Shown here: positions 19,381 to 58,364 of the stretch, in pieces
How the letters are laid out: every line of letters begins with the position of its first letter
Numbering within the stretch: the first letter of the stretch is position 1
Virus record (IMG/VR): IMGVR_UViG_3300045988_160201
Length of the DNA: 62,291 bases
Source: a virus
Reading direction: 5' to 3' (one strand)
Notes under the pieces: generated by a model
The model's input: the letters and a program-made list of their open reading frames with translations, nothing else
Databases searched by the model: none
What the model was told of the DNA's origin: nothing
Made by a program: the position numbers and the translations under genes

Positions 19381-19385
19381 GAGGC

Positions 19386-29856: not shown

Positions 29857-29879
29857 TAACGATAATTAAAATAAAAGCC

Positions 29880-30110
29880 ATGTTACAAGGATATCAAATA
29901 AGAATGCTAGAAGAGTATAAGCAACTTAATGACCGGGTAGAAAAGTTGGAGAAATTCATCAATGAATCTCCAGTGTTTTCTAAAATGGAAGTGCATAAAC
30001 AAATACTTCAGCGTTGGCAACTGTCGGCAATGAAATCATATCGTGATGCCTTAAAGAGAAGATGTCTGGCAGAAGGATTTTCTCCGTTGACTGGGGATGG
30101 TCTGGAATAA
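29880..30110 (+). CDS. N4 gp49 / Sf6 gp66-family-like small protein (76 aa)
   Basis: The pattern MLEEYKQLNDRVEKLEKFINESPVF...QILQRWQLSAMKSYRDALKRR matches my recollection of the Phage_gp49_66 family. Confidence 0.55.
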   Translation: MLQGYQIRMLEEYKQLNDRVEKLEKFINESPVFSKMEVHKQILQRWQLSAMKSYRDALKRRCLAEGFSPLTGDGLE

Positions 30111-30142
30111 ATGTTAATTCTATAACTTTTTTAAAAAACATC

Positions 30143-33628: not shown

Positions 33629-33659
33629 AGTAATTAGAAAAGTTTTTTTTGTAAATAAG

Positions 33660-33692
33660 CCAACTGGCGCAGTCTGCCTCTGCGCCAGTTGG
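33660..33692. terminator. Bidirectional terminator (13-bp stem)
   Basis: ccaactggcgcag/ctgcgccagttgg with loop tctgcct, flanked by T/A runs. It lies between convergent genes. Confidence 0.8.
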
Positions 33693-33725
33693 TTTACGTT
33701 TTAATATATTCCTAATATTTGTTGA

Positions 33726-34244
33726 TTAGTTGAAATTAAATAATTTTTCAAAGTTTCCATCACTAAAGGCTGTTTCTAAGTTGTGTATCTTTTCGTCTCT
33801 TCCCTCTTTTAAAGAGGTTATATGTAGGATGTTTGCTGCAACATCCCAAGTCTCTAATCCGAATTTATTAAGATACTCTTCTACTGCTTTGTCTATACCG
33901 TCAAAATCATTTGTAGTGTCCAATCCTGCTACAATAATTGCTTTTTTCTCTGCACTGACACCAATACATTGAATGGAATCAAGTCCTTTTTGCTTTACCC
34001 TATAGTAGTTGAATACAGTTGTCTCTTTACCGTTTTCTTTCACTATCTTTTTCATGAAAGGTAGCTCTGGAGATTGTTCTGGTAAAACTACTAAATCCCA
34101 ATTTATAGTTATTGTTTTACCTGGAACTTCAGTGAATACAGTATCAATATCATCCATATTGCTTGAAGAAACTGTTTTATTAGCTTTATTGCCACAACTA
34201 GCAAATACAGCTAAACATGATAAAAATAAGAATACATTTTTCAT
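33726..34244 (-). CDS. Lipoprotein (172 aa), a moron and superinfection-exclusion candidate
   Basis: MKNVFLFLSCLAVFASCGN carries a signal peptide plus lipobox Cys. AT-rich. It has its own promoter. Confidence 0.65.
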   Translation of the reverse strand: MKNVFLFLSCLAVFASCGNKANKTVSSSNMDDIDTVFTEVPGKTITINWDLVVLPEQSPELPFMKKIVKENGKETTVFNYYRVKQKGLDSIQCIGVSAEKKAIIVAGLDTTNDFDGIDKAVEEYLNKFGLETWDVAANILHITSLKEGRDEKIHNLETAFSDGNFEKLFNFN

Positions 34245-34273
34245 AATTATTAATTTTAAGATTTTCATAATCG

Positions 34274-34281
34274 CAAATATA
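34274..34281 (-). promoter_or_regulatory. TAnnTTTG -7 box (TATATTTG on the minus strand) embedded in the palindrome ATCGC-N7-GCGAT
   Basis: Plus strand reads caaatata inside atcgcaaatatagcgat (34270-86). It lies 30 nt upstream of the ATG at 34244. Confidence 0.4.
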
Positions 34282-34597
34282 GCGATTTGTTCATGAATGT
34301 AAAATATTTGCATGGAATTTTGTATCTTTGCATCGCACATAGCGATGTGCATCAGGATTTGGACGGTTCCGATATAGTTTCGGGCCGTCCTTTTTTGTTT
34401 TCACACTGGTTGGTCTTGTGTATGTTTATCCAATATGTGACAAGGGCGGCTGTCTTTCCCGGATTGCCGCCCTTCCTGTTCAATAATGATTAGTAATCAG
34501 GTATAACAAAGGTATACAAAGATATAAAACAATCTTATTAAAAACAATCGGTAATGTAAAATCTTGAGATTTACATTGTAAATTACAATTATATGCG

Positions 34598-34605
34598 TAT
34601 TTTTG
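34598..34605 (+). promoter_or_regulatory. TAnnTTTG -7 box (TATTTTTG), candidate promoter of the acyltransferase gene with a long leader
   Basis: Read directly. It lies about 260 nt upstream of the ATG at 34868. Confidence 0.3.
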
Positions 34606-34867
34606 TGCAAAAAATATAAAGTATATGAAAAGGTTGGTTATAGCTTCATTGTTTCTGTTTCCTTTTTTGCGACAAATGCTGTGGGATGGATAGATGTTTA
34701 AGATACATGAAAACTATGAGTCTTTTTCTTGTTTTCTATGGGATGAAATATTACTTCCCTAGCTGGATATATGTTTGTTATACCATATATAAAGAATCTG
34801 AATAATGTGATTGGTTTGATTAGCCTCTCCCGAGCTATTGAAAAGTTGAATTAAATAAATTACTGTT

Positions 34868-35851
34868 ATGCTACAAAGATTAGAAGTTATTGATTTTTTG
34901 CGAGGATTCTCTATTTTTACCATTGTGTTAATGCATTTGTTGCAAAGTTTTCCGATAAGTCCGTTCTTAATGGCTGCTTCATCTTTTGGTGGGGCAGGAG
35001 TACATGTATTCATCTTATGTAGTGGATTTGGACTTTATTTATCATATTTAAACAGACCGCTTACTTATATTCAATTTTTGAAACGACGTTTTTTGAAAGT
35101 TTATTTGCCGTACATAATAATTATATTGATAAGTGCTCTGATTCCTTTTTATAATACCTCATCGGATAAACTTCTCCAAGTACTTAGTCATGTATTCCTT
35201 TTTAAAATGTTTTTCAATGATTTGGAAAGTTCTTTTGGATTGCAGATGTGGTTTGTTTCAACAATTATTCAGTTTTATTTGTTATGGCCTTTGTTGTTGA
35301 AACTATTTAATAAATCTACGGGGGTGATTTATGCTTTGCTGATAAGTCTGTTATGGACTACTATTGTAGCGATGCTTGGGAAAAGCGATGTGCGTGTATG
35401 GAATAGTTTCTTTTTACAATATCTTTGGGAATTTGTTTTAGGTATGTATTTAGCTAAATGCTATAAACTTAATGCAAAAATAGTCAATTCGTTGAATTTT
35501 AATATATTAGTACCTGTCTGTATAATATGTGTTGCTCTTACAGGATTTGCTGGAATAAAAGGAGGCATTTGGAAATTATATAATGATATTCCTTCTATGA
35601 TTGGATATTTGTTTGCGTTGTTGATTATATATAAATTACATATAAAACCTATTAATGGCTTATTTATGTTTACTAATAAGATTTCTTATGAATGGTACTT
35701 GGTGCATATACTGGTCTTTAGTTGTACTTTTTATTATTTGTATAAGTTGGAAACTTTTAGTATGGTAGTAATAGCTGTCATTTCATTTATTCTTTCGTAT
35801 GTTGTGGCTTGTTTATATCATTGGATTCTTGGTAAGATGAAGGTATGTTGA
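34868..35851 (+). CDS. Acyltransferase family 3 (OafA/YrhL-like O-acetyltransferase)
   Basis: The N-terminus LEVIDFLRGFSIFTIVLMHL is typical of Acyl_transf_3. About 10 TM segments. Confidence 0.8.
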   Translation: MLQRLEVIDFLRGFSIFTIVLMHLLQSFPISPFLMAASSFGGAGVHVFILCSGFGLYLSYLNRPLTYIQFLKRRFLKVYLPYIIIILISALIPFYNTSSDKLLQVLSHVFLFKMFFNDLESSFGLQMWFVSTIIQFYLLWPLLLKLFNKSTGVIYALLISLLWTTIVAMLGKSDVRVWNSFFLQYLWEFVLGMYLAKCYKLNAKIVNSLNFNILVPVCIICVALTGFAGIKGGIWKLYNDIPSMIGYLFALLIIYKLHIKPINGLFMFTNKISYEWYLVHILVFSCTFYYLYKLETFSMVVIAVISFILSYVVACLYHWILGKMKVC

Positions 35852-35887
35852 AATAATAAGATTCATTATAAACAATAAGATCTTGGT

Positions 35888-36010
35888 GAAATGAAGAAAC
35901 TGGTTCTTATGGTGCTGGAGGAGAACAGGATATTGCGTGAGATGCTTGCCAAGGAGTGGGAGCGGGGAGGATGTCATGCTCCCATGACTTTGAGTAAAGG
36001 AGGAAAGTGA
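35888..36010 (+). repeat. 123-bp direct repeat, copy 2
   Basis: See 18575..18697. Confidence 0.95.
35891..36010 (+). CDS. Micro-ORF, 39 aa (copy 2 of the duplicated ORF)
   Basis: MKKLVLMVLEENRILREMLAKEWERGGCHAPMTLSKGGK. The one nucleotide difference from copy 1 is synonymous (agc/agt, Ser). Confidence 0.4.
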   Translation: MKKLVLMVLEENRILREMLAKEWERGGCHAPMTLSKGGK

Positions 36011-36846: not shown

Positions 36847-36876
36847 AATGCCGGAACGGCAGGAGAAATAAATAAA

Positions 36877-36912
36877 CATTAAAGGGTTATCATTATTGGT
36901 AACCCTTTAATG
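36877..36912. terminator. Bidirectional terminator (13-bp perfect stem)
   Basis: cattaaagggtta/taaccctttaatg, between the convergent 36846 (+) and 36921 (-) gene ends. Confidence 0.8.
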
Positions 36913-36920
36913 TTATCGTT

Positions 36921-39900
36921 TTATTGTCTGTACACCTTTTCAACTTCTTTTCTCACTTTTTTAGTGATAGTCTGTTTCTTGTATTTTTTTTCCATATCTG
37001 GGTATTCCGGATGTTCTTCCAACCATTCTTTTTTATCTTTGGCTTCGTCATGTTTTCTTTTGAGTTTTAGGAACTCTTTTTCATTTTTCAAAGTTTCCTT
37101 CTCTTTTTCATTGAGGTTGTTGATGATGTATTTCTTTTTTATTTCAGAGTCTTTCCTTTTAGATGTTCCGTCTGAATAGGGCAGTTTCTTTCTGTAGTCA
37201 TTAAACAGTTTTCCAGCCTCATACATCTTGTTCAGATATTCATAAGGTCCCATATCCTTGTATAGTTTCTCGGCCATTTCCTTTCGTTGGGATTTGGGAA
37301 GGTTGATTAGGAACATAAAATCTACAAGGTCGGGGCGTCCTTCCCTTATGGCGGATTCGGCTCCCAGATAAATGTTTTCCAGTGTCTCTACATTTAATCC
37401 GGCAAATTTCCCTAATTTGGCGGCCAGCTCCCTTTGTACATTCAGGTTGAATCCGTCTTTTACCGCCTCGCTTATCAGATTTGACATCTCTGTAATGAAT
37501 GAGAGAGGATCATATTTGTTCCCTTGTGATATGGCGTTGACAAACTGTCCAATGGAAGTTCCTCCCAAGGAACTTAAAGCAGCAGATAAAAATATGCTTT
37601 TCAATTGTTCATCAGTGAACCATAAATCCTCATCCCCGTCCCCGTATCCGAACATGGCGTAGATATTGGATATGAGTGGTGCTGTGATTCCTGCAATACC
37701 GTATCCTCCTGCCGCCCACAAGCCTCCCATTACAAATAGTCCGAAGGTGGCTTTCCTCAGCCCGGTAAGATAGCTGCCCATCATTGTTCTTTGGGCTTCG
37801 TCTTTATTCATTCCGGATTCAATGTTCAGATTGTATATCCTTTTTGCTCGTGCCATTTCAAGAAGCCCCTCAATACCCATCCGCTGGTATCCTATGTTGC
37901 TGCTTTGGTAAGTGGTCAGCGCCTTGTAGAACACATTGCCGCTTGCCTGCATAGGGGACATCATTTCCGGGCTGGAACTCTGCTGGCTTTCATTGAATGC
38001 TATTTCAGCGTTGTATTTGGCTAAATTGGCGGCTTCCTCATTGCCCAGACCTCTTTTTTGCGCACGCTCATATTCAAAATTGTAAACGGCTCTCGCTCCG
38101 GCCGCACATGTCAGCGCATCAATAAGCTTGTTGGGATACATGCCTGCATTGGTAAGTTTCTCCAGCTTGTTTTTGAATGCATTTTCATCCTTTAATGCTT
38201 CGATTCCCATATTTCCCGTATCAACCCGTTCTTCAAAAGAAGGAAGATGCTCCTTCGCCCATTTCATGTTTCCTGCCGGGGTGAATATGTATTTGAACAA
38301 ATCAGCCTGATATCCCGGCTTTCCGCTGTATGCGGAGAATGCCGGATAGGAGAGCACCTGCTTCATTGCGGTGTTGAGTCTGAATGCTATATTGGAACCT
38401 GCCCAATACCTTAATATCTTGTTTAGTCCGTTATTGAGCGAATCTTGTTTCTGCTTGTCATTGAAACTTCGTACGGCAACCTCCGCCGCTCTCATGAAGA
38501 TATCAAACATTCCTTTATGGTTTGCCTCCATATAGTTCTTGAAAGCCTTGCTTCCCCGCAGGAAATTAAGATCCTGGCGCAGCTCAGCCGTTGCCGCCCA
38601 AGTTTCCATATCCCTTCCGTATTTTAGCATCAGATCAAAAGCGTTTCTGCTAGTGTCCACCTTCAGAGTATTTATCGTACGGTTGATTATGTTTCCGGTT
38701 ATTGTGCTTGGCATACCGATGATTGTTTCTCCTAGCTCTCCCTTTTCACGGATTTCGGATTTGGCTATGACCATAGGGAAATAATTCTCCCGTGAAGCCA
38801 TGCTGGTTCCCGTCATTCTTACATGGACCGGATTGTACCTTTCTTCTCGTAGCCTTGGAAAGAAGTCGTCCGTGATCCATTCTCCGAGTTTCATGTATTT
38901 ATCGCCTATAAAGAACTCTATCTCGGTCATGCTGTCTTCCGTCCATCCGTCCGCCTCTAGCTTCATCTTTCCGTCCGGCTGTCTCCATGTGAGCCATACA
39001 TAGAACGCTTGCCCTTTGTTTAGGTTTGCCTCATACAGGTCGCCCTCCTTATGGTAATTGCTGTCGTACATATATTGTTTGTGAATCCTTTTTTCTGATT
39101 TTTGAGAATCCCTGAATACATTTTCCATTGATTTTCCGAACAGCTCCTTTATTTTTTCTTCCAGTTCTTTGTTGTAAGCCTTTACCCCCAAATATATCCT
39201 ATCATTGGCTTCCACCACTCCATGACTGCTTTTCATGAAATAATCGTATAAGGGACCTTTTCCTATGGCGTGGTTCCTGTCTATGGCTTTCAGCAGATAA
39301 TCGAAACTATACATGGGATAGGCGATAAAGTCACCGATGCTTTGCAATATGGACACAGTTTTTTCCATATTTGTTTCTTTCTCGTTTATGCCTTTTATTC
39401 TTTTATCTTTTACGGCATTTATTCCCATGCTGACAATTCTTCCCCGGTGCGCGGCTTTTTCCTTGTTCAGCATGGCAAGGCGGCTTTTCCCGGTATCAAC
39501 AAGTGCTTTCAGTTCATTGTACACATTATCGGTCATCCTTATTAACTCTTCCTGCGCTACGGGTATTTGTGCAGCTATTTTCTCAGCCTCCTGCAGATAA
39601 AACTTTCGTGCTTCACCTTTGTTGTTGTAGGCGACTCTTCTGGTGGTCACAAGATCGCCCTCCAGTTTGTCCAGATCTCGTTTCATTTTTCTGGATTCGG
39701 CCAATAGTTCGCGTATGGAAAGAGAATCATACTCATCGGCCATAGTCTGTGTGAACACACCTGTTCCTTCCGCCGCTTCATCCATGGCATTCTCTAGCTC
39801 TTCCCGGCGCTTCCGTATCTCTTCAACGGATTCAAGTTCTTTAGTTTTCAGCAGTTCGGCTCTTTCTTTTAATAGATTATCCCTTCGGCTTTTCATTTCA

Positions 39901-42900
39901 TTCTGCTGACCGGTAAGTATGGTGATGCTTTCAGGGGATGTCTCAGATTTTATGAGTTTTCCCAGTTTTACAATTTCGCTTCTTACGGCACGGAGTTCAC
40001 TGTCAGCGCTTGTTAGCAACAGGTCTTTGTAAGCGGATCGTATACTGTCAAACACACGTCTAGTAGCCTCATCAACAACTATCCCTTTTGATACGCCTCT
40101 TGTATCCTGCCCGGAAAGCTTCGTTTTTATCATTTTTTGCATCCTTTTCACCGAACTGTCATATTGGGCATAGTTTATCAACTTTTCAACAAGATTTAGT
40201 GGTTCCTTGAGTTTATTTGTTGATGCGGCCTTGTTTACTTGGGCAATCAGTGACTTTATCATATGTGGCCCCATTTCTTCTCCCGCCTCCTTGGTCAGTC
40301 TTTGATCTATAAAGGAAAGCATGGCTCTTGACGCAGTCTCGTATTCCTCTTTATTTCCTTTTCGTGCCTGATCCAATTGCTTTTTCAATTCCCGTATCTC
40401 TTCTTTCAGATTTTTAATAATCTCCTTCTTTTCTTCCTTTCCTGTAATACGGAACAAGGTCTCTCCCTGAGGAACAGACGGGATGGTACGTGAACTGCCT
40501 GAGAACTCACCAATTCCCAGTTTTGAACGCATGACGGTTTCCTTTGCCACATCAACAGGATAGTTTGACTGTTTCAGTCTGTTGTGGCTTTCATAAAGGA
40601 TGTATCTCAGCTCATTGTCCGTCAGTTCAAATCCCAGATTCACTTTCGCTTTACGGAGCATGTCTATAAAGAAGGTTTTGATTCGTGTCCATAAGGACTG
40701 CTCCGCAAAGGTAGCCGGTCCGCGTTCGGACAGGTCTGCCATATATTCCTCTGTTGCTGTACGGATGGATATGTTCTCATTTTCCGCCATCCGGTTGATG
40801 GTCTGTCTGATTGATGGTGCGGCATTGTTGTATACATTGTCAAGGAAGGTATCGAAGTCCTTTCCGAACAGCTCACGCAATCCCTTATGTGCCACCACCT
40901 CATGGAATATAGTCGCCTGTGCGTCCTCCACGGATGTTGTATTTGGCATATATAGATATACCTTGTTCTCCTTTGGTGAGTACCATCCTTTGATGTTGGC
41001 TCCCGATTCGATACGTCTGCGCGCCTCGCCTTGTGGAAGCTGGTCTTCGGAAGTGATTTTTTCTATAGGTGTATGAAGAGATTCAGAAAGTTCATTCACT
41101 GCTGTATTCATGGGAGCAGACACAGAAGCATAAGCCTCCAAAGCGTCGTTTATAAATATCTGGTCTTCTCGTGCTACATCTTCCGTTTCCGAAGCAAGAG
41201 TATTGCGGCGTTCCTCAGGTGTCATATTCATACGGGATTGTACATTACGTGCTTCAACTTCACCTGAAAGTTCATTGTATCTGTCGTTTTCTCCACCAAG
41301 TCCAAATTTTTCAATAAGAGATTGATACTCATTATAAGCATCCTCATATCCCTCTTTATCATAACCCCGTACCCAAAGATTGAATCCCTTATCAAAAGCA
41401 TTACGGCTGGGGATAAAGCCATCCCCAAACTCGAATCCATCTGAGTGATATTCATTTACCAAAGCATTATAAACATCCATCTGTGAAGCGTCTTCTCCAA
41501 GTTCCTCACGCTTGTCAGCAAACTCTTCAATCATAGACCAGGCATCGCGCTTTTCTTTTAATGCGTCAAGGTGTTTTCTATAAGTCATACTGTTTCCACC
41601 ACGGGCGAATCCTTCAATTGATTGTACGGTATGCTGTACCTCATGCGCTAAGATACTACGGAAATCCGCTCTGTCTAGGACAGACTCATTCACACGTATC
41701 AAGTTTTGGCTTTCATAATAAGTTGCTCCTGTATTGCTTGTAGGGGCGTTGTATATCTCCACGCGTATCTGCTTCAACTCCGGATACGCCTTAAACAAAT
41801 TCTCATCCTTCACATAATCGTCAAGATAACGCACGTCGTTCGCTTCGTATGTGGCGCGAAGTTCTTCTGCCTTTTCTGATAATTCATCAAAACGGGCTGC
41901 CTCTTCTTCCGTCAGCTCTACTCCATCAAACAGTTTGTCGCTTAGCGCATCATACTCTTTGCCCCATGACAGGTTGGACCAAAGTCTGTTTCTTCGCGCA
42001 AGTCCTTTCGGATCAATCTCAAAATCCTCCACTTCATATCTCCATTTTCCGTCAGCCCCACGTTCCCAACCTGTAGCCAGCTTGATTTTCCTAGCATTTT
42101 CTTTTTCATTTGTTTGGAGAAGAGAAACTAATTTCTTATCTTTGATATTGGAAATAGGAGCAGTTTGTATTTCCCCTCTATTCGTCGGACGATTCCGGTC
42201 TTCTGTTCCAGCATCGGGCGTTGAAGACAATTCAGTCGAGGAGGAAGGATTTATTAGGGCAAGTTCATTTATGAGTTTGCCCTTTTCTATGTGTGTGAGT
42301 TTGTGGTCATAATAACGGTTCCCGTCTTTTTCTTCTGCTTCTACCATACGGACTGTATAATCTTCACTGCCAATTTTCAACCCACATATATAATAATGAT
42401 AAGCCACTACATTGGGATTTTTCTGTACGTCTTGGTTTTCAGAACTATCTATATATATAGCGTTTTCTATAATTGAAGGAATGGCTGCCACACTCTTGAT
42501 TTGTACAGTGTCGTTAAGCGTGTCGTGCTGCAATATTTCTTTTAGACCACCGTTCTTGCGGCCTCTTTGTAATTGAATGGTTCTTCCTGTGTCTTTGTTT
42601 GTATATTCTCCTTGTAAATTTTTCCCGTATTCCAATGCGTTTTTCTTATACTGTTTTAAATCATCGCTTGGAGTCACTTCTTTGCCCGTAATCTCTATCG
42701 GCTCACTCTTCCGCAGCTTCTCAATGCGCCCTTTCTTCGTATTGAAAGCGGATTCCATCTCTCGTGCTACATTCAGGTTATCAAGGCGGGTAGTTGCTTC
42801 CTCTGCCTTATCCAGTTTGGACGCGCCTTCCTCTCCAATAAAACGATATCTTACATCCGCTTTTCTTGCATTGAATCGCTTGGAAGGAGGAATAATATTA

Positions 42901-45900
42901 CCTTTGTCGTCACGGGTTATCAGGTCATTCAGTTTTCGGTTGTTTTTTGTATTCTTGTAGCGGTAATCGCTCCTGTCATCATATCCCCATTCGTTGATAT
43001 CATTTCCGTCCCAATATAGATTTTCGGCTGGTACTTCTTCCTTCATAATTCTGTAATTGCCGTTTAAGGCATGTTCTCCATGAACTTTTACATAGGATTC
43101 AGACAGGGAAACCCAGTCACCGTTTCTTACCTTTCCTTCTTTCAATGATTTTGGAACGGCACGATAGATGGTAACGGTCGGTTTTTCTCCTTTGTCAATG
43201 GCAGACAATGCTTCATTGATTGCGGCGGCACTTTCATTTTTGTATTGATCCCTGTTCATGCGAAGCTGCTCATTTAAGGATTCGCGTATCTGATCTTTGT
43301 TTGCGGCAATGTCAACCATGTTTTTATCAATACCTTCCTCATCATAAGAGGGGGCGCGGTGTGCCATTCTGAATTCATCGGCGGAAACATAACCGTTTCT
43401 TCGTGCGGATTCGTGTATGATGTCACGCATACGGGCTTCATTATTTTCTTCCATAGCCTTGAAATAGGCCTCATCCATCTCTTCATCCGTCATCAGTTCA
43501 AATTCCTTTAGACGCTTCTTTTCCGATTCGGCTTCTTCCTCCGCACGTTTACGGGCGGCTTCCATCATGTTACGGGCTTTCATTTCCTCTTGCACGTATT
43601 CATCTCTCAAGGCATCCACATCACCGAACTTTTCATACAGCTCTTTTTTGATCGGAGAAAAAACTTTTACGAATTGCCCTAATGACAGGTTGGAGTTCTG
43701 GAGACGCACATTTCTGCTGATTGATTTGAAAGCATAACTTGCGCCACCCAGATTTTTCATTTTCATGGATTGTGCGTACTTTTTTACATCGGCTTCATCA
43801 AGGTTGTGCTTGTTGGCGAAAGAACTTATTTCCTCATTTCCAACCTCGCGAAACCGGATGTCACTGCCTTCGGAAGTAAGTATCTCATTGCTTTCGTCAT
43901 TCATTGCGCGTAAGCCGGAATATTCGGCTTCAAGTTCCTGCTGTTCCTGGTTCAGTTCCTGTTGCTCGGAGAAAACAGCGTCTCTCTCAACGGAGTCATT
44001 TCCGGCTTCTACCAGAATATCCTCCAGTTCTATCTTCCTGTCCTCTATTTCGGCCAGTCTTGTTTCTATGTCCTTCATTCTGTCCGCATTGGCGGATTCT
44101 ATGGAAGGTGCAAGTTGCACAGGATTCACGCTCTTGTATTCAGAGAACGGCTTTGTCTTTTTTACAGAAGAATCAATCCATTTATAGAACTCATCCTTCG
44201 TTACTTCTGTAATGGTACTTATTCGGTTCTCCCAACCGGGAGAATAGTTTGCAAGATAAGAGGAACGTGCTTCATCCATAGACGGAAAACCGTACATTAC
44301 CTTACTTTCGTCAAATTCACCCTTTTCATTGAGCTGGTCTACTACAAACACATTTCCTTCGGACGGATTGTCTGACAGGAAGATGTCTATATGGTCACCG
44401 TCCACGGCTTTCGTGCCACGGATATAGCCGTAGTCGTTGTTCATGGTAATGCTCCATTCCTGTCCGTTGGCATCCTTTCCGCTACGGACGGATCCTTTCG
44501 GATTTTCTATGGTAATATCATATCCATCAAGTTTAATGTGACCTTTCTTATAGTTCCCGGCTTCCTTCTGCGCTTCAGTAGGAGAGGTGTCGACCATTTC
44601 GCGTGCTTCCGCGATATGGTCTAGGAGTTTGTTTGTGGATGTGTTATCTTGTACATTGTCATTCTGAGGATGCAGTCCTTCATCAGTCTGTCCTTCCATT
44701 TGTCCGGATTTTCCTTGATATCCTTCAGTTCCGACGGCATGAACAGGTTTTTCTCCTTGCAGAACCGCATCGCCTCTTTCGCGTATGCCAAATATTCCTC
44801 CTTGCTCATCGCTTTTACGCGTTCCGATTCCTTCGTCAGTTGGATTCTCTCTTCTGTTGTCATATTCTTGTTGCTTTATTATTTTATCGGCAAATGTATT
44901 ATAAAATTCAGACTTTTCTTCATTCGAATAGACATTTGATTCAGAAAAGGCCTCATCATTAACCCATGCTTCATATTCATCCGGAGACATGTGGTATTGT
45001 TCTTGGTAGAATTGTTCTTTTAGTTCATCCTCATATTCTTTTTCCGCATCTATGGCGCGTTGCGCTTCTTCGGTTCTGTTGTTTCTTATCATATTGCTGA
45101 TATCACCAAAAGTTCGGCTTTGTTGTAGAACGGATAGGATCGCGTTTGTGCCGGCCATGCCGGTATTGTCATTTTCCAGTCCTTCTTTCGCCACTATTGC
45201 CGGATAACTTTCATGGGCGATGCTTATCAGTCTGTCTCCGGCTTCTTCTACGGTCATACCCCCCTTCTCTTTTTTTCTGAAGATGGAAAGAAATGGCGTC
45301 AGGTCTTTGTGACTTAAGCCAGTCATGTTTCTGACACTTCTTTCTCCTGTCATTTGCAGGAACAGGGATTTTCCCAGTACCAAGGATGCAAGCTCTTCCA
45401 AAGTTTCCGGCTCGGTACGTGACAGAATTTCCTGAACAAGAGGATTTTCCGGAAGCTCCGTATCCGTTATTGACTCAGATATTTTCGCAGCAGGCTTCTG
45501 AATACTATTTTTCCTGCCAGTGTCCGGAATTCCCTCTGGTCCCATGCGTTCTTCACCTGTTCCCTTAGCTTCGGGTCTCTTCTCAGTTCCTCTTTCTTTG
45601 CCTTGTTCGCTTGTTTCTGAAACTGGTACGGGCTCATTTGTGTCATTTCCATTCGTGCCAGTCTTACTGCTTTCTGATATTCCATTTGTTTGGTTATTAT
45701 TAGTTTCTGTTATGGGTATGACAGAGTTGTAGAAATTCTTTATTTCTTCATTCTCCGCTTTTGCTTCTCTAATAGCGTCCCTTATCTCATTTCTTTTTCC
45801 CCGTGTGGCGGATGACAGGGATTCATTCAATTTAGCTATCTGTGCATCACTCGCCTCTATATCCTTTCTCAAGTCATCCAGAGCGGTTTCAAGTGATTCT

Positions 45901-48900
45901 GTCAGATTTGTGTATTGGAATGACTGCTGTGGCGTCAGAGATTCATAATCAATGCTTCCGTCCTTCTTTTTAGGAAAGGAGGATATAAGTTTGTCCAGTT
46001 CGGATTTTTCGTAAGTCGGACTCTCTGTGCTTTCCTGCAATGGTTGGTTTCCCATCTCTTTTCCTTCAGGAGCGGTTTCATTTGTTGAACTCTTGGATTT
46101 TTTCACCCAATCGGTGTACTCTTGGACGGGAACCGCACCTAACTGGTATGCTTCATTTTCCAATATATTCATTGATACCTCATCGCTTTTGACCTCATTG
46201 TACTCATCGGTTGGAACGACAAACATACCTCCGATTTCCTCATCAAAACCGATAATGGTCATACTTTCTCCTTCTGGAGTGATATAGGAGGCGCCGATTT
46301 CCGGAGCCGCTTCCGCATCATCTTTTCTTTGTGCGTCAAATAGCGACTGTTTGTATTTGAAATATTGCTCTTCTGTCACGAGTACGGAACCTGTTTCATT
46401 ACCGTTGTTGTCTATGATCTTCCCGGACCATCCGCCGGGAACTTCCTCATCAAGTACTATCTCTTTGCCTCCTGTATATATCTTGTCACCTTTTTCGGGT
46501 TGTAATGCAAGTACTTCCGGACTGAATTTCCGAATTAACTCTTCCTGTCTTCTATTTTCATCCTCTTGTGCGTATTCAGTCCGTATTCCGGCTTTGTCCA
46601 CATTGTCTTTCATGGCCCGGAGTTGTTCATCGCTGACAGAAACCGGCTCCCGACTTCCTTCCATGAGTACGGACCAATTGCCCATTGTATCCTGACCAAC
46701 AACAGAAATGCCGGTCACTGTGCCATTATCATCCGCTATGCTGAATGTCTGTCCTGCGGATATGGGCTGTGCTTCCATGATTGCGGCATCGGCGTTGTAT
46801 GCGCCAAGCATTTGTTCAAGAACTTGATCCCGTCCGACCATTGAGATCTCTGTGTCTGCATTGATTCTTACAGTCTTGGCATTATTCTCATCAAATGAGG
46901 CGAATATCGGACCTTCTGGACCGTTTTCCAATGGCACTACCATGAGTGTGCCTGTTTCTCCGGGTTGCCCAGTGGCATCTATACCATTTATGACAACTCC
47001 GTAACTGTGCTCCTTGTCTCCGAATCTTCCTAACGGAATAGTGACAACTTGTCCTTGGGGAGACATTTGCTGGACTTTGACAGCCGCCTGTTCATATTCG
47101 GAAGCATGAGCCTCATCCAATGCGTCCTCAACTGCGTCATGACGGTCTTTCTGCCGTAGGTAGTCCGTAGCCAAACGTCTGGTCTCTTCGTCCATGACAT
47201 CCAGCATTTCCGCACGTTGGGCGTCATTGGCACCGGCAAGCGCATCTATGGCTTCATCATCCAGTACGGATGAAAGGCGTTCACGGGAAACTTCCTCACG
47301 GAGGACTGTCGTGCGCATGGCTACTGGATCATGAGTTGTATAGATATCCGTTCCCTCTTCTTGTGCTGCCGTGCGCTTTTCGGACTCCTCACGGGTCTGC
47401 TCTCCTGCAATGTCCTCCATGGCATTGTTCTTCGCAATGTCAAACGCATATTCTATCTCGGCCTTTTTCTCTTCCTTGCTGAGGCTACCGTCATTCATGG
47501 TTTCTTTGATGAAAATCCTTATGTCGTCATTGCCACGTTCTTTTGACATACGTTCCAGTTCGGACAGTTTCTCCTGTTGTTCTTTGGTCATGTTTCCGAA
47601 AGCCGCATTCATCTTCTGGCGGTGTCTTACCCTTTCAGCCCCCATGCTTCCAAGTCCTAATAAGCCGAAAGCGACGGAAGTGGGAGCCAGTCCAAGGAAT
47701 GTGTCTATATTGTTGTCAAGGTCTGTGGCTTCTTCCAAGGTCATTTCACCTAACGGGACATTTGCAAGATTATTATACACCTCTTCCATATATTCTTCGG
47801 GTAGCCCGTGGAACTGCGCTTTTTTTGCGGCTTCTTTGAAAGTAGGGTTGTCCTTTATCTCCCTGTATAGCTTACCGGCCCTGCTGTTCGTTATATATTT
47901 CATGAATTCACTTGCGCCACCGGGAACGGTCTCTTCCACATTCTTCCATATTCCTTTGCCCAGTCCTTTGAATGCGTTGAAAATCATCTCGGATTGGTTC
48001 TCAAGAAAAGTGGAAGCGATTGATTTGCCGATGGCTTTACCCATATCCATTCCTCCTTCACGTCCTCCATAAGTCAAGTTTCCATCCTTGTCAACATCAA
48101 ACAGAATATTCCCCATCATTCTGTCTTGTGCTCCTGCGGTGACACGCGCCAGTCCTGTTGTTCCTTCCATTCCTGCTGCGGCCAAAGCGTCTCCGGCAAG
48201 ACGTGCCCCCATTTTTGACATTCCTTTTTTCATGGCGGACGCGCCGAATTTCTTCATACCGTATTTTAGAATGCTTTTGGCTATTCCCTCACCTGCCGCC
48301 GATATCGGGTTTATGGCGAATTCCAGCATGAACGGGATACTGGCTCCTGTGGTTTGTCCAGCCTTGTATCCTCTTCCCAAATCGGAGGAATAATAGGCGT
48401 TGACCGCCATGTTGGTGACAGCGGCGTCAAGCAACTTCTCTTCAGAAGGTGAGAGCTTTTCTCCTTTATCCGCTTTCTCCACCACATTTTTCAGACGGAT
48501 GCCGCCTATCATGTCGGATATGCCTAAAGTCCATTGTTGGGGATCAAATGCGGTATCGGCGAAACCACGCGCTAGACCGCTAAAAAAGTTTGTTTTTCCT
48601 TTCTTCCCGGCTTCCTCTATAATATTGTTCGATTCATCAATAAGGTCTTTCGCCCCTTCCAGATAAGTCCTTTCTCCTCGGTACTGTGCTAATGTAGGAT
48701 CTTCCCTTGTATTCATTCTGGCATTCACCATCGCATTACCGGAATCGTTTCTTAGTATTTTCTTTTGTTTGGTAATCTTTTCCTCTATGTCATCAAGGTC
48801 TTTGTTTACTTCATTGGTCAGGGTGCTAAGATGGGAGCCTACGCTCTTTTTGACAAATCCGGCAAGATCACGCTTCATGTCTGTACCGTAACGTGAAGTT

Positions 48901-49769
48901 ATCTCTTTATTGTATACGTCCTGATATGATTCCAATTCCTTGCTAATGACCTCTCCGTAGGTCTTCTGAAACGCTTCGTTTGCTTTTTGGTTAAGTTCGT
49001 TCCCTTTATATTGTTGTGACAGCTTCCTGTATTCGTCTGAGGCAAGAAACCGGTTGGCATATTTGTCTTGAATCTCCTTCTGTATTCCGGCCATTTCTTC
49101 CGAAAGCTGTTTTCCTCTTTCTGTCAGGGCAAACCTGTCACGATAGTTGTTATATACATCATTCATGGACGATATGGAACGCGGGGTATATTCCTTGTCC
49201 AAGCGGCTTTCTTCTTCAACCGTAAATAGTTTGTCCAATTTTCCTTTGTCCATATCTACTTTCAATCTTTCTCCCAAATTTATCGGAGAAAATTGATATC
49301 TAGCTGAAACCTCCGCCTTGTCTGACTCCATTTGCGATGTGGAGGGGGGGATAAACTGAAAGTTGTCTTTTGAATGCACTTGTTCACGTAAGCCGGGACG
49401 TGTGCTGGGATTATAGTTTCTCATATCAAAAATCCTGTCCGCTTCCTCCTGTGTTCCGACACCACCTGAATATGTTCTTGAAACAGGGTCATATCCGTTG
49501 CCTGTTTGAAAGTAATCAGACTTTGGAGTTTGAGGGGTGTTGTTAGGTTGCTGTATTTGTACAGAGGAATCAACTGGTTGCATGAATTGATTAAAGTCCT
49601 CATATGAGTCAGAGTATCCGGTCTTATCCTTTAATACGTCATATACTTTCTTTCTGGCTTCCTCATTTTCATCCATGAATTTGTTAAAATCCTCATATGA
49701 GTCAGAGTATCCGGTTTTATCCCTTAATACGTCATATACTTTCTTTCTGGCTGTATTATTATCTTGCAT
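36921..49769 (-). CDS. Giant polyvalent protein (4,282 aa), a probable virion-packaged or ejected multi-effector
   Basis: Uninterrupted 12.8-kb ORF. Motifs: pyrophosphatase-like IENPKGS...YGYIRGTKAVDGDHIDIFL; ART-like IYRAV/SLSES/NEWGY; ...YHYYICGLKIGSEDYTVRMV...YYDHKLTHIEKG; HEVQH; FHEVVAHKG; ATGWERGADGKWRYE. The C-terminal region has a Gly-rich TM segment. Confidence 0.85.
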   Translation of the reverse strand: MQDNNTARKKVYDVLRDKTGYSDSYEDFNKFMDENEEARKKVYDVLKDKTGYSDSYEDFNQFMQPVDSSVQIQQPNNTPQTPKSDYFQTGNGYDPVSRTYSGGVGTQEEADRIFDMRNYNPSTRPGLREQVHSKDNFQFIPPSTSQMESDKAEVSARYQFSPINLGERLKVDMDKGKLDKLFTVEEESRLDKEYTPRSISSMNDVYNNYRDRFALTERGKQLSEEMAGIQKEIQDKYANRFLASDEYRKLSQQYKGNELNQKANEAFQKTYGEVISKELESYQDVYNKEITSRYGTDMKRDLAGFVKKSVGSHLSTLTNEVNKDLDDIEEKITKQKKILRNDSGNAMVNARMNTREDPTLAQYRGERTYLEGAKDLIDESNNIIEEAGKKGKTNFFSGLARGFADTAFDPQQWTLGISDMIGGIRLKNVVEKADKGEKLSPSEEKLLDAAVTNMAVNAYYSSDLGRGYKAGQTTGASIPFMLEFAINPISAAGEGIAKSILKYGMKKFGASAMKKGMSKMGARLAGDALAAAGMEGTTGLARVTAGAQDRMMGNILFDVDKDGNLTYGGREGGMDMGKAIGKSIASTFLENQSEMIFNAFKGLGKGIWKNVEETVPGGASEFMKYITNSRAGKLYREIKDNPTFKEAAKKAQFHGLPEEYMEEVYNNLANVPLGEMTLEEATDLDNNIDTFLGLAPTSVAFGLLGLGSMGAERVRHRQKMNAAFGNMTKEQQEKLSELERMSKERGNDDIRIFIKETMNDGSLSKEEKKAEIEYAFDIAKNNAMEDIAGEQTREESEKRTAAQEEGTDIYTTHDPVAMRTTVLREEVSRERLSSVLDDEAIDALAGANDAQRAEMLDVMDEETRRLATDYLRQKDRHDAVEDALDEAHASEYEQAAVKVQQMSPQGQVVTIPLGRFGDKEHSYGVVINGIDATGQPGETGTLMVVPLENGPEGPIFASFDENNAKTVRINADTEISMVGRDQVLEQMLGAYNADAAIMEAQPISAGQTFSIADDNGTVTGISVVGQDTMGNWSVLMEGSREPVSVSDEQLRAMKDNVDKAGIRTEYAQEDENRRQEELIRKFSPEVLALQPEKGDKIYTGGKEIVLDEEVPGGWSGKIIDNNGNETGSVLVTEEQYFKYKQSLFDAQRKDDAEAAPEIGASYITPEGESMTIIGFDEEIGGMFVVPTDEYNEVKSDEVSMNILENEAYQLGAVPVQEYTDWVKKSKSSTNETAPEGKEMGNQPLQESTESPTYEKSELDKLISSFPKKKDGSIDYESLTPQQSFQYTNLTESLETALDDLRKDIEASDAQIAKLNESLSSATRGKRNEIRDAIREAKAENEEIKNFYNSVIPITETNNNQTNGISESSKTGTNGNDTNEPVPVSETSEQGKERGTEKRPEAKGTGEERMGPEGIPDTGRKNSIQKPAAKISESITDTELPENPLVQEILSRTEPETLEELASLVLGKSLFLQMTGERSVRNMTGLSHKDLTPFLSIFRKKEKGGMTVEEAGDRLISIAHESYPAIVAKEGLENDNTGMAGTNAILSVLQQSRTFGDISNMIRNNRTEEAQRAIDAEKEYEDELKEQFYQEQYHMSPDEYEAWVNDEAFSESNVYSNEEKSEFYNTFADKIIKQQEYDNRRENPTDEGIGTRKSDEQGGIFGIRERGDAVLQGEKPVHAVGTEGYQGKSGQMEGQTDEGLHPQNDNVQDNTSTNKLLDHIAEAREMVDTSPTEAQKEAGNYKKGHIKLDGYDITIENPKGSVRSGKDANGQEWSITMNNDYGYIRGTKAVDGDHIDIFLSDNPSEGNVFVVDQLNEKGEFDESKVMYGFPSMDEARSSYLANYSPGWENRISTITEVTKDEFYKWIDSSVKKTKPFSEYKSVNPVQLAPSIESANADRMKDIETRLAEIEDRKIELEDILVEAGNDSVERDAVFSEQQELNQEQQELEAEYSGLRAMNDESNEILTSEGSDIRFREVGNEEISSFANKHNLDEADVKKYAQSMKMKNLGGASYAFKSISRNVRLQNSNLSLGQFVKVFSPIKKELYEKFGDVDALRDEYVQEEMKARNMMEAARKRAEEEAESEKKRLKEFELMTDEEMDEAYFKAMEENNEARMRDIIHESARRNGYVSADEFRMAHRAPSYDEEGIDKNMVDIAANKDQIRESLNEQLRMNRDQYKNESAAAINEALSAIDKGEKPTVTIYRAVPKSLKEGKVRNGDWVSLSESYVKVHGEHALNGNYRIMKEEVPAENLYWDGNDINEWGYDDRSDYRYKNTKNNRKLNDLITRDDKGNIIPPSKRFNARKADVRYRFIGEEGASKLDKAEEATTRLDNLNVAREMESAFNTKKGRIEKLRKSEPIEITGKEVTPSDDLKQYKKNALEYGKNLQGEYTNKDTGRTIQLQRGRKNGGLKEILQHDTLNDTVQIKSVAAIPSIIENAIYIDSSENQDVQKNPNVVAYHYYICGLKIGSEDYTVRMVEAEEKDGNRYYDHKLTHIEKGKLINELALINPSSSTELSSTPDAGTEDRNRPTNRGEIQTAPISNIKDKKLVSLLQTNEKENARKIKLATGWERGADGKWRYEVEDFEIDPKGLARRNRLWSNLSWGKEYDALSDKLFDGVELTEEEAARFDELSEKAEELRATYEANDVRYLDDYVKDENLFKAYPELKQIRVEIYNAPTSNTGATYYESQNLIRVNESVLDRADFRSILAHEVQHTVQSIEGFARGGNSMTYRKHLDALKEKRDAWSMIEEFADKREELGEDASQMDVYNALVNEYHSDGFEFGDGFIPSRNAFDKGFNLWVRGYDKEGYEDAYNEYQSLIEKFGLGGENDRYNELSGEVEARNVQSRMNMTPEERRNTLASETEDVAREDQIFINDALEAYASVSAPMNTAVNELSESLHTPIEKITSEDQLPQGEARRRIESGANIKGWYSPKENKVYLYMPNTTSVEDAQATIFHEVVAHKGLRELFGKDFDTFLDNVYNNAAPSIRQTINRMAENENISIRTATEEYMADLSERGPATFAEQSLWTRIKTFFIDMLRKAKVNLGFELTDNELRYILYESHNRLKQSNYPVDVAKETVMRSKLGIGEFSGSSRTIPSVPQGETLFRITGKEEKKEIIKNLKEEIRELKKQLDQARKGNKEEYETASRAMLSFIDQRLTKEAGEEMGPHMIKSLIAQVNKAASTNKLKEPLNLVEKLINYAQYDSSVKRMQKMIKTKLSGQDTRGVSKGIVVDEATRRVFDSIRSAYKDLLLTSADSELRAVRSEIVKLGKLIKSETSPESITILTGQQNEMKSRRDNLLKERAELLKTKELESVEEIRKRREELENAMDEAAEGTGVFTQTMADEYDSLSIRELLAESRKMKRDLDKLEGDLVTTRRVAYNNKGEARKFYLQEAEKIAAQIPVAQEELIRMTDNVYNELKALVDTGKSRLAMLNKEKAAHRGRIVSMGINAVKDKRIKGINEKETNMEKTVSILQSIGDFIAYPMYSFDYLLKAIDRNHAIGKGPLYDYFMKSSHGVVEANDRIYLGVKAYNKELEEKIKELFGKSMENVFRDSQKSEKRIHKQYMYDSNYHKEGDLYEANLNKGQAFYVWLTWRQPDGKMKLEADGWTEDSMTEIEFFIGDKYMKLGEWITDDFFPRLREERYNPVHVRMTGTSMASRENYFPMVIAKSEIREKGELGETIIGMPSTITGNIINRTINTLKVDTSRNAFDLMLKYGRDMETWAATAELRQDLNFLRGSKAFKNYMEANHKGMFDIFMRAAEVAVRSFNDKQKQDSLNNGLNKILRYWAGSNIAFRLNTAMKQVLSYPAFSAYSGKPGYQADLFKYIFTPAGNMKWAKEHLPSFEERVDTGNMGIEALKDENAFKNKLEKLTNAGMYPNKLIDALTCAAGARAVYNFEYERAQKRGLGNEEAANLAKYNAEIAFNESQQSSSPEMMSPMQASGNVFYKALTTYQSSNIGYQRMGIEGLLEMARAKRIYNLNIESGMNKDEAQRTMMGSYLTGLRKATFGLFVMGGLWAAGGYGIAGITAPLISNIYAMFGYGDGDEDLWFTDEQLKSIFLSAALSSLGGTSIGQFVNAISQGNKYDPLSFITEMSNLISEAVKDGFNLNVQRELAAKLGKFAGLNVETLENIYLGAESAIREGRPDLVDFMFLINLPKSQRKEMAEKLYKDMGPYEYLNKMYEAGKLFNDYRKKLPYSDGTSKRKDSEIKKKYIINNLNEKEKETLKNEKEFLKLKRKHDEAKDKKEWLEEHPEYPDMEKKYKKQTITKKVRKEVEKVYRQ

Positions 49770-51520: not shown

Positions 51521-51528
51521 CAAAAGTA
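51521..51528 (-). promoter_or_regulatory. TAnnTTTG -7 box (TACTTTTG on the minus strand) for the giant-gene operon
   Basis: Plus strand reads caaaagta. It lies 32 nt upstream of the ATG at 51489. Confidence 0.4.
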
Positions 51529-57746: not shown

Positions 57747-58364
57747 TTATTTTCTTTTTATTCTGATGGCAATGACCTTTGCTGTTTTATTCTTGCAGTA
57801 CTGGCAGCAGAATCGCTGTGCGCATGTTTCGCAATTGCGGCACATATCCAGTAGATATTGTTTTTCTTGTTTGAGTACATCAACCTTGTATTGCAGGTCT
57901 AAAATGACATTTTTTATAGTTTCTTCCATAATAAAAAAGGTATTAGAATCTAATTGGTATTTTATAGAAGAAACAACGTCGGATTCGTTATTGTTTAACC
58001 CGTAATTGACATTTTTCTTTTCTTCAATTTGCTTTTCAAGGAATTTAACTTTCTCTTTTAATAGTGATATAGTATCGTGCTGGTCATCTATTACCTTTTT
58101 ATACCAAGCTTCATCAAAATCATTTGCTTTAATAGAATCGCTAGTCTCGTTTAACATCATGGAACCTGTACCACGAAGCAACCATTCAGCACTTATCTCA
58201 GGAAAAGCGTTGAGTATGGCTTCTATTATTTCTAAACTAAGTTTGCGCTTGTTGGCAGTATAGTTGTTGAGCGTAACTTGATTCACGCCAATCTTCATTG
58301 CGAAATCTCTTTCTGATTTGGCATTTTCAGAAATCAACATTTTAATTATTTCAATTGTTTTCAT
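57747..58364 (-). CDS. CI-like repressor (HTH) with a coiled coil and a C-terminal Cys cluster
   Basis: FAMKIGVNQVTLNNYTANKRKLSLEIIEAILNAFPEISAEWLLRGTGSM carries the Phage_CI_repr WLLxGxG signature. The C-terminus is CRNCETCAQRFCCQYC. Confidence 0.75.
   Translation of the reverse strand: MKTIEIIKMLISENAKSERDFAMKIGVNQVTLNNYTANKRKLSLEIIEAILNAFPEISAEWLLRGTGSMMLNETSDSIKANDFDEAWYKKVIDDQHDTISLLKEKVKFLEKQIEEKKNVNYGLNNNESDVVSSIKYQLDSNTFFIMEETIKNVILDLQYKVDVLKQEKQYLLDMCRNCETCAQRFCCQYCKNKTAKVIAIRIKRK

Follow-up and report, generated by a model that had tools for sequence, protein, structure and literature searches.

Polyvalent proteins carry several (2-15) domains of a common repertoire in one polypeptide; their genes, on phages or conjugative elements, usually lie close to those for the virion or for transfer. 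They were described by Iyer et al. (2017; PMC5512222), and P1 DarB, a large protein of the polyvalent class, is packaged in the head and injected. An ejection role has been raised for a related class: the 2,807-aa (amino acids) protein vb_24B_48 (gp47) of the E. coli Stx2 phage phi24B was detected in purified podovirus virions by mass spectrometry, is absent from the cryo-electron microscopy map, and was proposed by the authors to be an ejection protein (preprint 10.64898/2026.04.10.717836). In T7 (gp14/15/16) and P22 (gp7/20/16), co-directional trios of small, medium and large genes encode products that are almost free of cysteine (Cys). Here we analysed the IMG/VR virus record IMGVR_UViG_3300045988_160201, a stretch of 62,291 nucleotides (nt) that we call the window, and the gene in it that encodes a protein of 4,282 aa, the giant. 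To judge from its sequence, the window belongs to a temperate Bacteroidales phage of the human gut. We propose, with moderate confidence, that the giant belongs to the phage-type polyvalent proteins and most likely doubles as the large ejection (pilot) protein of this probably short-tailed phage. The observations are its domain content, its architecture of constant ends around a variable middle, the synteny of its gene, and the depletion of cysteine. This kind of protein (Iyer et al., 2017), its InPase domain and the ejection-protein idea for a related class (the phi24B preprint) are already known. The C-terminal domain family, the twin motif at the N-terminus, two modules named here YRAVP and HExxxH, and the argument from a gene trio with Cys-free products appear to be undescribed. 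In the literature we found no specific earlier description of the Bacteroides giants; the paper on the isolates does not discuss them, and giants have been deposited as "hypothetical" or misnamed "DarB-like".

Domain content and architecture of the giant

The initial annotation had described one uninterrupted open reading frame (ORF) taking up 21% of the genome, and this was borne out (Table 1). The gene makes up 20.6% of the 62.3-kb genome, a share that holds because the first and last 56 nt of the window are identical and the window is therefore a circular assembly. The ORF is a genuine gene: its frame was unbroken in 26 related IMG/VR contigs over all ~3,330 codons available. Near-identical fragments of it are contained in GenBank records of human-faecal phages. 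Cysteine occurs in the product only at aa 2462 and aa 3888 (n=2).

Table 1. Positions in the window of the features discussed (aa numbers refer to the giant)
Feature	Position	Strand	Remark
Promoter-like box TACTTTTG	51521..51528	-	fits the Bacteroides -7 consensus; single short match, weak
"Small" protein, 168 aa	50983..51489	-	first of the trio; Cys-free; Gly-rich hydrophobic N- and C-termini
"Medium" protein, 399 aa	49778..50977	-	8 nt upstream of the giant; Cys-free, Q/R/E/K-rich, helical
Giant polyvalent protein gene	36921..49769	-	single unbroken ORF; 4,282 aa, 485 kDa, pI 5.1
Tandem pair of 31-aa motif (aa 7-37, aa 38-68)	49566..49751	-	24/31 aa, 78/93 nt identical
Gly/Ala-rich hydrophobic block (aa 358-833)	47271..48698	-	includes LPD14 and hydrophobic segment aa 691-709
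Variable central region (aa ~860-1700)	44670..47192	-	acidic and beta-rich; without family assignment
InPase (aa 1732-1865)	44175..44576	-	type I inorganic-pyrophosphatase-like OB fold; Pfam PF18823
YRAVP module (aa 2096-2310), unnamed, conserved	42840..43484	-	TIYRAVPK...RNGDWVSLSESY...WDGND..EWGYDD...YKNTKNNRKL...SKRFNARKADVRYRF
LPD3 (aa 2370-2487)	42309..42662	-	Pfam PF18798, E 1.9e-23
LPD23 + zincin-like metallopeptidase (aa 2557-2875)	41145..42101	-	GWERGADGKWRYE aa 2567-2579; HEVQH aa 2709-2713; GEVEARN aa 2836-2842
HExxxH block (aa 2887-3116)	40422..41111	-	FHEVVAHKG aa 2955-2963; ATEEYMADLSE aa 3005-3015
Helical coiled-coil-like linker (aa 3117-3379)	39633..40421	-	charged, K/E-rich
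All-alpha C-terminal domain (aa 3380-4282, ~900 aa)	36924..39632	-	family-defining module
18-bp palindromic hairpin	36875..36914	.	7 nt past the giant stop codon, between convergent genes
Portal	10445-12418		PHROG/Pfam
Adaptor-like ORF	18727-19431		weak SU10-adaptor match
Capsid protein	19989-21482		match to SU10_MCP
252-aa ORF	21548-22306	-	Cys-free; between capsid gene and terminase region
TerL	23240-25408		PHROG/Pfam
Pectate-lyase beta-helix spike	25984-29856		PHROG/Pfam
Integrase	56400-57608		PHROG/Pfam
Repressor-like protein	57747-58364		lysogeny module with integrase

The assignment to the polyvalent proteins, which had been made before any search, is secure. InPase, LPD3 and LPD14 (aa 609-713, E 1.9e-13) stand above their Pfam thresholds in the one polypeptide and LPD23 stands just below, and a wider repertoire was found in 11 relatives with the same C-terminal domain, which carry varied sets of InPase, ART-PolyVal, LPD3, LPD23, MuF_C, the DUF6782 peptidase and PBECR3/5, together with Kinase-PolyVal, RadC and C5 DNA methylase. 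The setting also agrees: the window encodes a portal, TerL, major capsid protein (MCP), integrase and endolysin, and the giant abuts portal or TerL genes in relatives. The giant thus resembles the proteins of Iyer et al. (2017; PMC5512222) as a multi-domain phage product with InPase, LPD3, LPD14, LPD23 and a putative zincin, whose relatives swap ART-PolyVal, PBECR, kinase, MuF_C, RadC and methylase domains and lie near head genes. It differs from them in that its twin motif and ~900-aa alpha domain fall outside the Pfam models from that study, and in that it has no MuF N-terminal anchor, ADP-ribosyltransferase (ART), methylase-helicase or PBECR.

The family was delimited with a profile of the last 903 aa, searched against 1.84 billion cluster representatives. 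The domain was present in 1,596 of them at E<=1e-3 (538 at <=1e-30), and in the full-length matches it nearly always formed the C-terminal end of a protein of 3,000-7,091 aa. When the regions of the giant were traced through 115 giants, aa 2900-4200 recurred in 50-100% of them, aa 400-800 in ~45% and InPase in ~40%, and the remainder in <20%; the family is built of constant ends and exchangeable middle cassettes.

The C-terminal end had been taken for coiled coil and helical repeats over a length of more than 1,000 aa. Only ~260 aa of this, a linker conserved in 45-60% of giants, kept that description; the last 903 aa form a single globular all-alpha domain in the AlphaFold2 (AF2) model (predicted local distance difference test, pLDDT, 78.6; predicted template modelling score, pTM, 0.74). 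Recognizable parts of the domain are AFNE(S/T)QQSS (aa 3924-3932), a Gly-rich hydrophobic helix (aa 4009-4033) and an acidic GDGDED loop (aa 4041-4050). The helix corresponds to the transmembrane segment of the initial annotation: it is present and conserved, but its mean Kyte-Doolittle hydropathy (KD) of 1.46 is borderline for a membrane span. No Pfam or NCBIfam model covers the domain, and neither sequence profile nor fold found a match in the PDB. In BFVD it did match 71 models, each a C-terminal piece of a viral protein with ART-PolyVal, LPD or MuF_C annotation.

The other constant part lies towards the N-terminus. The 31-aa tandem duplication noticed at first sight is real, and Tandem Repeats Finder reported a 93-nt period with 1.8-2.1 copies in its DNA. 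It is a hallmark of the family, since tandem repeats recur within the first 130 residues of 56/116 giants, compared with 2/116 in a control region; their periods are ~30 or ~51 aa and they fall into at least three sequence classes. The twin motif is a candidate signal for incorporation into the virion. Among 27 close, near-identical relatives, 25 had two copies of the 31-aa repeat, and L014 and L018 had one; the one-copy state may reflect assembly collapse. The Gly/Ala-rich hydrophobic stretches were likewise found, with a Gly+Ala content of 24-31% across aa ~400-720, including LPD14, and a KD of 1.52 at aa 691-709. The LPD14 block is common to BS-TP4 gp3, BKO1-TP3 gp55 and 52/115 giants and starts invariably at residue 196-464; its profile gave no significant match to Gundel gp74 or phi38:1 gp101.

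Between the ends the sequence is exchangeable. The region of aa ~860-1700 is common to <20% of giants and gave no Pfam or PDB match, and self-BLAST of the beta-rich region revealed no internal repeats. In L028 and L030, aa 1152-1438 (window 45456-46313) are swapped for unrelated sequence between flanks that are 74-87% identical, a replacement that we read as cassette exchange inside one phage species or genus.

Next to this region, the pyrophosphatase-like segment of the initial annotation proved correct. PF18823 matched with E 1.9e-54 over profile positions 1-134 of 135, and the motifs IENPKGSVRSG, DGDHIDIF and VVDQ...FDESK are kept in the giant and conserved in relatives; a full-length profile match and the acidic metal-binding residues of a type I pyrophosphatase-like InPase are both present. 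InPase forms a hairpin-less clade of type I pyrophosphatases and is restricted to phage-type polyvalent proteins, probably packaged, with inorganic pyrophosphate or a nucleotide-like compound as putative substrate (Iyer et al., 2017; PMC5512222). The unit is thus an already described phage-specific polyvalent domain and not new, and the remark that it matched no characterised protein was wrong. The C-terminus of the Pa193 portal (gp19) likewise bears an InPase, and residues 636-763 of that protein were the sole PDB sequence match (E 1.8e-28); the InPase-like C-terminal extension of that portal was left unresolved by the authors of the structure.

Two further enzymatic labels found no support. 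For the supposed ART-like segment, PF18760 (ART-PolyVal) gave no match at E<=1 on the whole giant and none at E<=0.1 on aa 2090-2290 alone, and Foldseek found no ART fold in the PDB with a confident AF2 model (pLDDT ~90), which had no PDB fold match of any kind at E<0.07. The segment is 41-43% identical to the proteins P0056 and P0089 outside their ART-PolyVal matches, which lie upstream of the part aligned with the window; it is the conserved YRAVP module, with whose C-terminal part phrog_2579 aligns. The supposed nuclease-like segment is LPD3. Its AF2 model (pLDDT 75-84) had no significant PDB fold match by Foldseek, and a nuclease is unsupported; weak, non-significant likenesses in that search were to NTF2-like, DUF4783, Pur-alpha and 3'cADPR-binding Lockin folds (E 0.07-0.35).

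The GWERGADGKWRYE module followed by HEVQH, and the second motif FHEVVAHKG, were both upheld. The former is LPD23 (E 1.5e-5; 25.2 bits, below the Pfam cut-off of 27 bits), a sub-threshold match that is backed by precomputed LPD23 matches in close relatives. H2709, E2710, H2713 and the downstream GE.E.RN are unchanged in 33 relatives. A metallopeptidase domain has been proposed to process proteins of the polyvalent class. At the zincin-like unit, the Pfam SprT-like match (E 0.003) was under the cut-off and a profile search gave a weak IrrE zincin match at HExxH; relatives have SprT-like, Peptidase_M78 or DUF6782 matches, and Pfam MPTase-PolyVal had no match in the giant. The FHEVVAHKG motif is of the type HExxxH, not HExxH. 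H2956, E2957, H2961, E3008 and E3015 are conserved in 62/63 sequences (invariant in alignment A12), and the block is common to the giants of BF1-TP2, BS-TP4 and BKO1-TP3 (E 1e-34 to 1e-52) and, weakly, to that of phi24B (E 0.002). It had no match in Pfam or against PDB profiles. We consider it a candidate for a second metal-dependent hydrolase, and its motifs have a putative likeness to HExxGH and EExxAE of M49 (DPP III).

Dozens of proteins of ~930-970 aa from Phocaeicola and gut metagenomes (P0287-P0328) consist of ART-PolyVal, LPD23, zincin and HExxxH block, and are 37% identical to the giant over 96% of aa 2540-3100 (a ~560-aa unit); the right half of the cassette region therefore also circulates as a separate gene. 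A short motif, D[IV]R[FY]R, stands at domain borders (SDIRFRE, aa 1969-1975, 43845-43865; ADVRYRF, aa 2304-2310, 42840-42860). Further instances are found in BF1-TP2 gp68, P0056 and P0089, and relatives have it as RFRFIGE ahead of LPD23; the motif is a candidate linker or processing site.

Partner genes, cysteine depletion and head-gene context

The giant is the third of three genes on the same strand, separated by gaps of 5 nt (168-aa/399-aa) and 8 nt (399-aa/giant). The initial annotation had spoken of co-transcription with two unassigned genes. Their strand, their spacing and the lack of a family match were confirmed: the 168-aa and 399-aa proteins had no Pfam, PHROG or NCBIfam match, and the giant none in NCBIfam. 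Co-transcription of the three is plausible in view of a TACTTTTG box upstream and a hairpin after the giant's stop codon. The box ends 32 nt 5' of the first ATG of the trio, and TAnnTTTG is the -7 consensus of Bacteroides promoters; the hairpin is likely a bidirectional terminator.

The partners recur with the giants. Homologues of the 168-aa protein are BF1-TP2 gp70, BKO1-TP3 gp57 and BS-TP4 gp1 (E 1e-14 to 4e-7), as well as L089 2311-2868. The 399-aa protein is weakly similar to BKO1-TP3 gp56 and has counterparts at the same position in L089, BF1-TP2, BS-TP4, Gundel_1, phi38:1 and phi24B. In BF1-TP2, BS-TP4 and BKO1-TP3, whose giants measure 3,633, 5,391 and 5,553 aa, genes for a 168-aa-protein homologue and for a protein of ~370-440 aa lie ahead of the giant in each case. 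The likeness of the 168-aa protein to the small proteins of Gundel and phi38:1 is organisational only (hhalign probability 0.6%).

Three co-directional genes of rising size with Cys-free products served as our criterion for an ejectosome, an operational definition of this analysis that is unpublished. The operon of the window has this layout, its two smaller products being Cys-free and the giant nearly so (Table 2); in gene order and composition alike it agrees with the canonical ejectosome of podoviruses. Other P22 proteins (TerL, portal, coat, gp4, gp10, gp14 and tailspike) contain 0.2-2.7% Cys. Both Cys of the phi24B giant (vb_24B_48, L010 3249-11672) are within its first 15 annotated residues (MPGHCAGFFYGVCMAY...); its true start may be a downstream Met, which would leave a Cys-free protein.

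Table 2. Cysteine in the trio and in the products compared with it
Products	Length	Cys
Window trio	168/399/4,282 aa (4,849 total)	0/0/2
17 other window ORFs	8,228 aa total	1.2%
115 family giants	>=3,000 aa each	median 0.15%
Gundel_1 gp72-74	225/511/2,482 aa	0/0/0
phi38:1 gp99-101	200/549/1,691 aa	0/0/0
phi24B	148/83/421/2,807 aa	0/0/0/2
T7 gp14/15/16	196/747/1,318 aa	1/0/0
P22 gp7/20/16	229/471/609 aa	0/0/0

The genes of relatives lie among head genes. At 18 distant IMG/VR loci the giant is beside head genes, with the portal downstream on the same strand in 7 and a convergent TerL gene adjacent in others. The giant is followed by the portal in BS-TP4 and BKO1-TP3, and the order in L089 is integrase, 185 aa, 295 aa, a window-type giant of 3,002 aa, and portal.

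An isolate with a C-terminal domain of the same family is the Tenacibaculum phage Gundel_1, a member of the Pachyviridae with podoviral morphology (PMC8776804). Its gp74 (2,482 aa) matched the window-type C-terminal profile with E 4.8e-25; genes for 225 and 511 aa precede it, all three products are Cys-free, and the portal is two genes downstream. Unlike the window phage, Gundel_1 is a lytic isolate from a marine Flavobacteriia host, and its giant is far shorter. By blastp, gp74 and the window giant had no shared region beyond the C-terminal domain, so that this comparison revealed neither InPase nor the LPD3/LPD23 cassette in gp74.

phi24B and the Bacteroides phages with BS-TP4 gp3, BKO1-TP3 gp55 and BF1-TP2 gp68 are temperate like the window phage, and small and ~400-aa Cys-free genes precede their giants, which have the conserved HExxxH block ahead of a long C-terminal domain. 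The giants of BS-TP4, BKO1-TP3 and BF1-TP2 also share with the window the LPD14 block, InPase and the small upstream gene. In contrast, phi24B has LPD5, LPD1 and MuF_C in place of InPase, LPD3 and LPD23, and its LPD38-containing C-terminus is homologous to those of the BS-TP4, BKO1-TP3 and BF1-TP2 giants (E 3e-40 to 2e-24). The ties between the window and phi24B are the blocks shared via the Bacteroides giants, the weak HExxxH match and the same operon layout.

The likeness to T7 and P22 lies in the co-directional small-medium-large trio that is almost Cys-free and in a short-tailed host phage, which for the window is our prediction; in T7 the largest member of the trio also has an enzymatic domain. 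However, the large member of the window trio is 3-7 times longer, and its effector domains are of the cytoplasmic type, with no lytic transglycosylase. P1 DarB was suggested by name: the PHROG label "DarB-like antirestriction" is attached to overlapping families (match aa 1140-2084, which includes InPase), and BKO1-TP3 gp55 bears this name in GenBank. A DarB-like protein is defined by LPD36, an EcoKI/TaqI-like N6-adenine methylase and an SF2 helicase (Iyer et al., 2017; PMC5512222). All three were absent from the giant, whose whole-length Pfam scan contained no methylase or helicase family.

Possible roles of the giant in infection

That the giant might double as an ejectosome had been suggested at the outset. 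The suggestion is plausible and was strengthened indirectly by the Cys-free trio, the portal and TerL neighbours, the structural label of Gundel_1 gp74 and the mass spectrometry of phi24B. The missing long-tail genes, the SU10-like capsid protein and the beta-helix spike also count in its favour, as do the structural labels of phi38:1 gp99-101. We infer a mechanism in which virion packaging, ejection, conduit formation, self-processing and every enzymatic activity are predicted steps. The operon of three genes (168 aa, 399 aa and 4,282 aa) would be expressed late, and the giant would enter the procapsid, perhaps by means of its N-terminal twin 31-aa motif. At infection the portal and tail channel would be its way out of the capsid, before or with the DNA. 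The modules of fixed position, namely the N-proximal LPD14 block and the C-terminal ~1,400 aa (HExxxH block, helical linker and 900-aa alpha domain with its Gly-rich helix), would help, with the two small partners, to bridge or breach the cell envelope. The exchangeable middle (InPase, YRAVP module, LPD3, LPD23 and zincin) would act inside the newly infected cell, where InPase would hydrolyse pyrophosphate or a nucleotide-like signal, and the zincin may release working units from the polyprotein by cleavage.

Several points weigh against an ejection role. The C-terminal domains of the window and of the LPD38 type are not detectably homologous (hhalign of A4 against A8, probability 3.4%; hmmsearch negative; no PF18857 match), and the link to the phi24B virion is therefore analogy, not orthology. 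The giant had no PDB sequence match to ejection proteins, Foldseek found none for aa 2090-2540 and 3380-4282, and no counterpart of the T7 gp16 peptidoglycan hydrolase domain was detected in it. The annotation of Gundel_1 gp74 as a structural protein is transferred, as is that of gp99, gp100 and gp101 of the Cellulophaga podovirus phi38:1, which rests on similarity to phi18:1. As membrane spans, the hydrophobic segments are borderline cases (KD 1.46-1.52). Contigs labelled Myoviridae and Siphoviridae are among the BFVD matches of the C-terminal domain, which may therefore occur independently of short tails. Cys-poverty is not specific to ejection, because scaffolds are Cys-free as well (P22 gp8 and the window ORF 21548-22306). 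Finally, the giant of the window is not adjacent to the portal.

Some of these points speak for the chief rival, to which we give a lesser but appreciable probability: the giant would be polyvalent cargo inside the capsid, packaged and injected as in the P1 DarB model, with no conduit role, and the conduit would be made by other proteins. Every named domain is indeed within the repertoire of effectors and LPDs of Iyer et al. (2017), and a myovirus, for which an ejectosome is superfluous, has InPase attached to its portal. The contigs that yielded BFVD relatives of the C-terminal domain bear the labels of all three tail types, and the two AF2 models (aa 2090-2540 and 3380-4282) share no fold with T7 core proteins. 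However, constant modules of fixed position, without enzyme signature, make up more than one third of the protein. A cargo role leaves the conserved Cys-free small and medium partners and the T7/P22-like gene order unexplained, and the genome yielded no further candidates for ejection proteins.

It is improbable that the giant is a cytoplasmic protein that is never packaged, either an early multi-enzyme factor for anti-defence or takeover or one expressed from the prophage. The position of the gene, between the fibre/moron region and the lysogeny module, would suit such a factor. However, in relatives the gene is linked to portal and terminase, homologues are annotated as structural, and the Cys-free signature is shared with ejection proteins. 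Furthermore, a counter to entry-stage defence would be useless if it were made only after a 12.8-kb gene had been transcribed and translated (an argument of Iyer et al., 2017; PMC5512222).

Some 50 ORFs of the window were annotated with PHROG and Pfam families, and neither they nor the giant matched a tail tube, sheath, tape-measure, tail-chaperone or baseplate family, in agreement with the initial annotation, which had recognised no tape-measure, sheath or tube genes. Tape-measure proteins are often the product of the longest gene of a phage and are helical, with Gly-rich hydrophobic segments and sometimes peptidase or lysozyme domains. A tape-measure or tail-lumen protein of a long-tailed virion, with the Gly/Ala block and long helices as ruler and membrane-insertion device and with accessory enzymes attached, is nevertheless very improbable for the giant: aa 400-720 and aa 3100-3380 are of similar flavour, but besides the missing tail families the giant is beside portal and terminase genes in relatives and not in a tail module, 4,282 aa at the usual ~0.15 nm/residue would give a tail of ~640 nm, the last 900 aa fold into a globular domain in the model, and Gundel_1, which has a homologue, is a podovirus.

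If the giant is an ejection protein, as we prefer, a broader and more tentative view may be taken, which we hold possible though on balance doubtful. The twin motif, the ~900-aa C-terminal domain and the two Cys-free partners could together be an injection platform that is widespread among Bacteroidota phages and so far undescribed: an ejectosome in which the largest subunit became a chassis for interchangeable anti-host enzymes, so that DNA conduit and effector delivery would be one molecule. At least two versions with non-homologous C-termini would exist, the present one and the LPD38 type. If true, it would show insertion sites for foreign cargo and thereby a way to phage delivery of proteins into Bacteroides.

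Gut Bacteroidales phages are abundant and poorly understood, and here one gene uses 15-25% of the coding capacity of a lineage. The constant modules and the Cys-free trio lead to a concrete prediction, that the giant and its two partners are in the capsid and form an injection apparatus, and cultured relatives exist for it (BF1-TP2, BS-TP4, BKO1-TP3 and Gundel_1). The exchangeable middle offers candidate activities for the first minutes of infection, when host defences act: InPase, two metallohydrolase-like blocks and unnamed conserved modules.

The phage and the rest of its genome

Relatives of the giant were found in metagenome-assembled genomes of Prevotellaceae, Bacteroidaceae, Bacteroidales and Tannerellaceae, and the cultured phages related to the window phage infect Bacteroides. 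The annotation of the window also yielded an endolysin and an anti-repressor, besides the genes in Table 1. PDB sequence searches with an 862-aa ORF and the MCP were uninformative on tail type. ORF 21548-22306 probably encodes the scaffolding protein.

A low-GC island (window 28000-36000; 0.31-0.34 compared with ~0.43 elsewhere) spans the ends of two fibre/spike ORFs of 1,200-1,300 aa and an O-acetyltransferase/O-antigen-acetylase-like ORF (34868-35851). A separately acquired module for host range and serotype conversion may be present here. Of the ORFs 60987-61343 and 9941-10387, one resembles nucleoside 2-deoxyribosyltransferase (phrog_355, 1e-30) and the other phosphoheptose isomerase or polynucleotide kinase (phrog_1238, 3e-26), which hints at nucleotide/DNA modification or sugar metabolism. 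An array of 24-nt tandem repeats crosses the circular junction (window 3-328, 13.6 copies; 62194-62291, 4.1 copies) and encodes GAATAGD(Y/S/N) octapeptide repeats, and ORF 4-393 is the final part of a gene starting near the end of the window. ORF 9231-9953 (-) contains, at window 9355-9494, a tandem repeat of 60 nt (2.3 copies, 92% matches).

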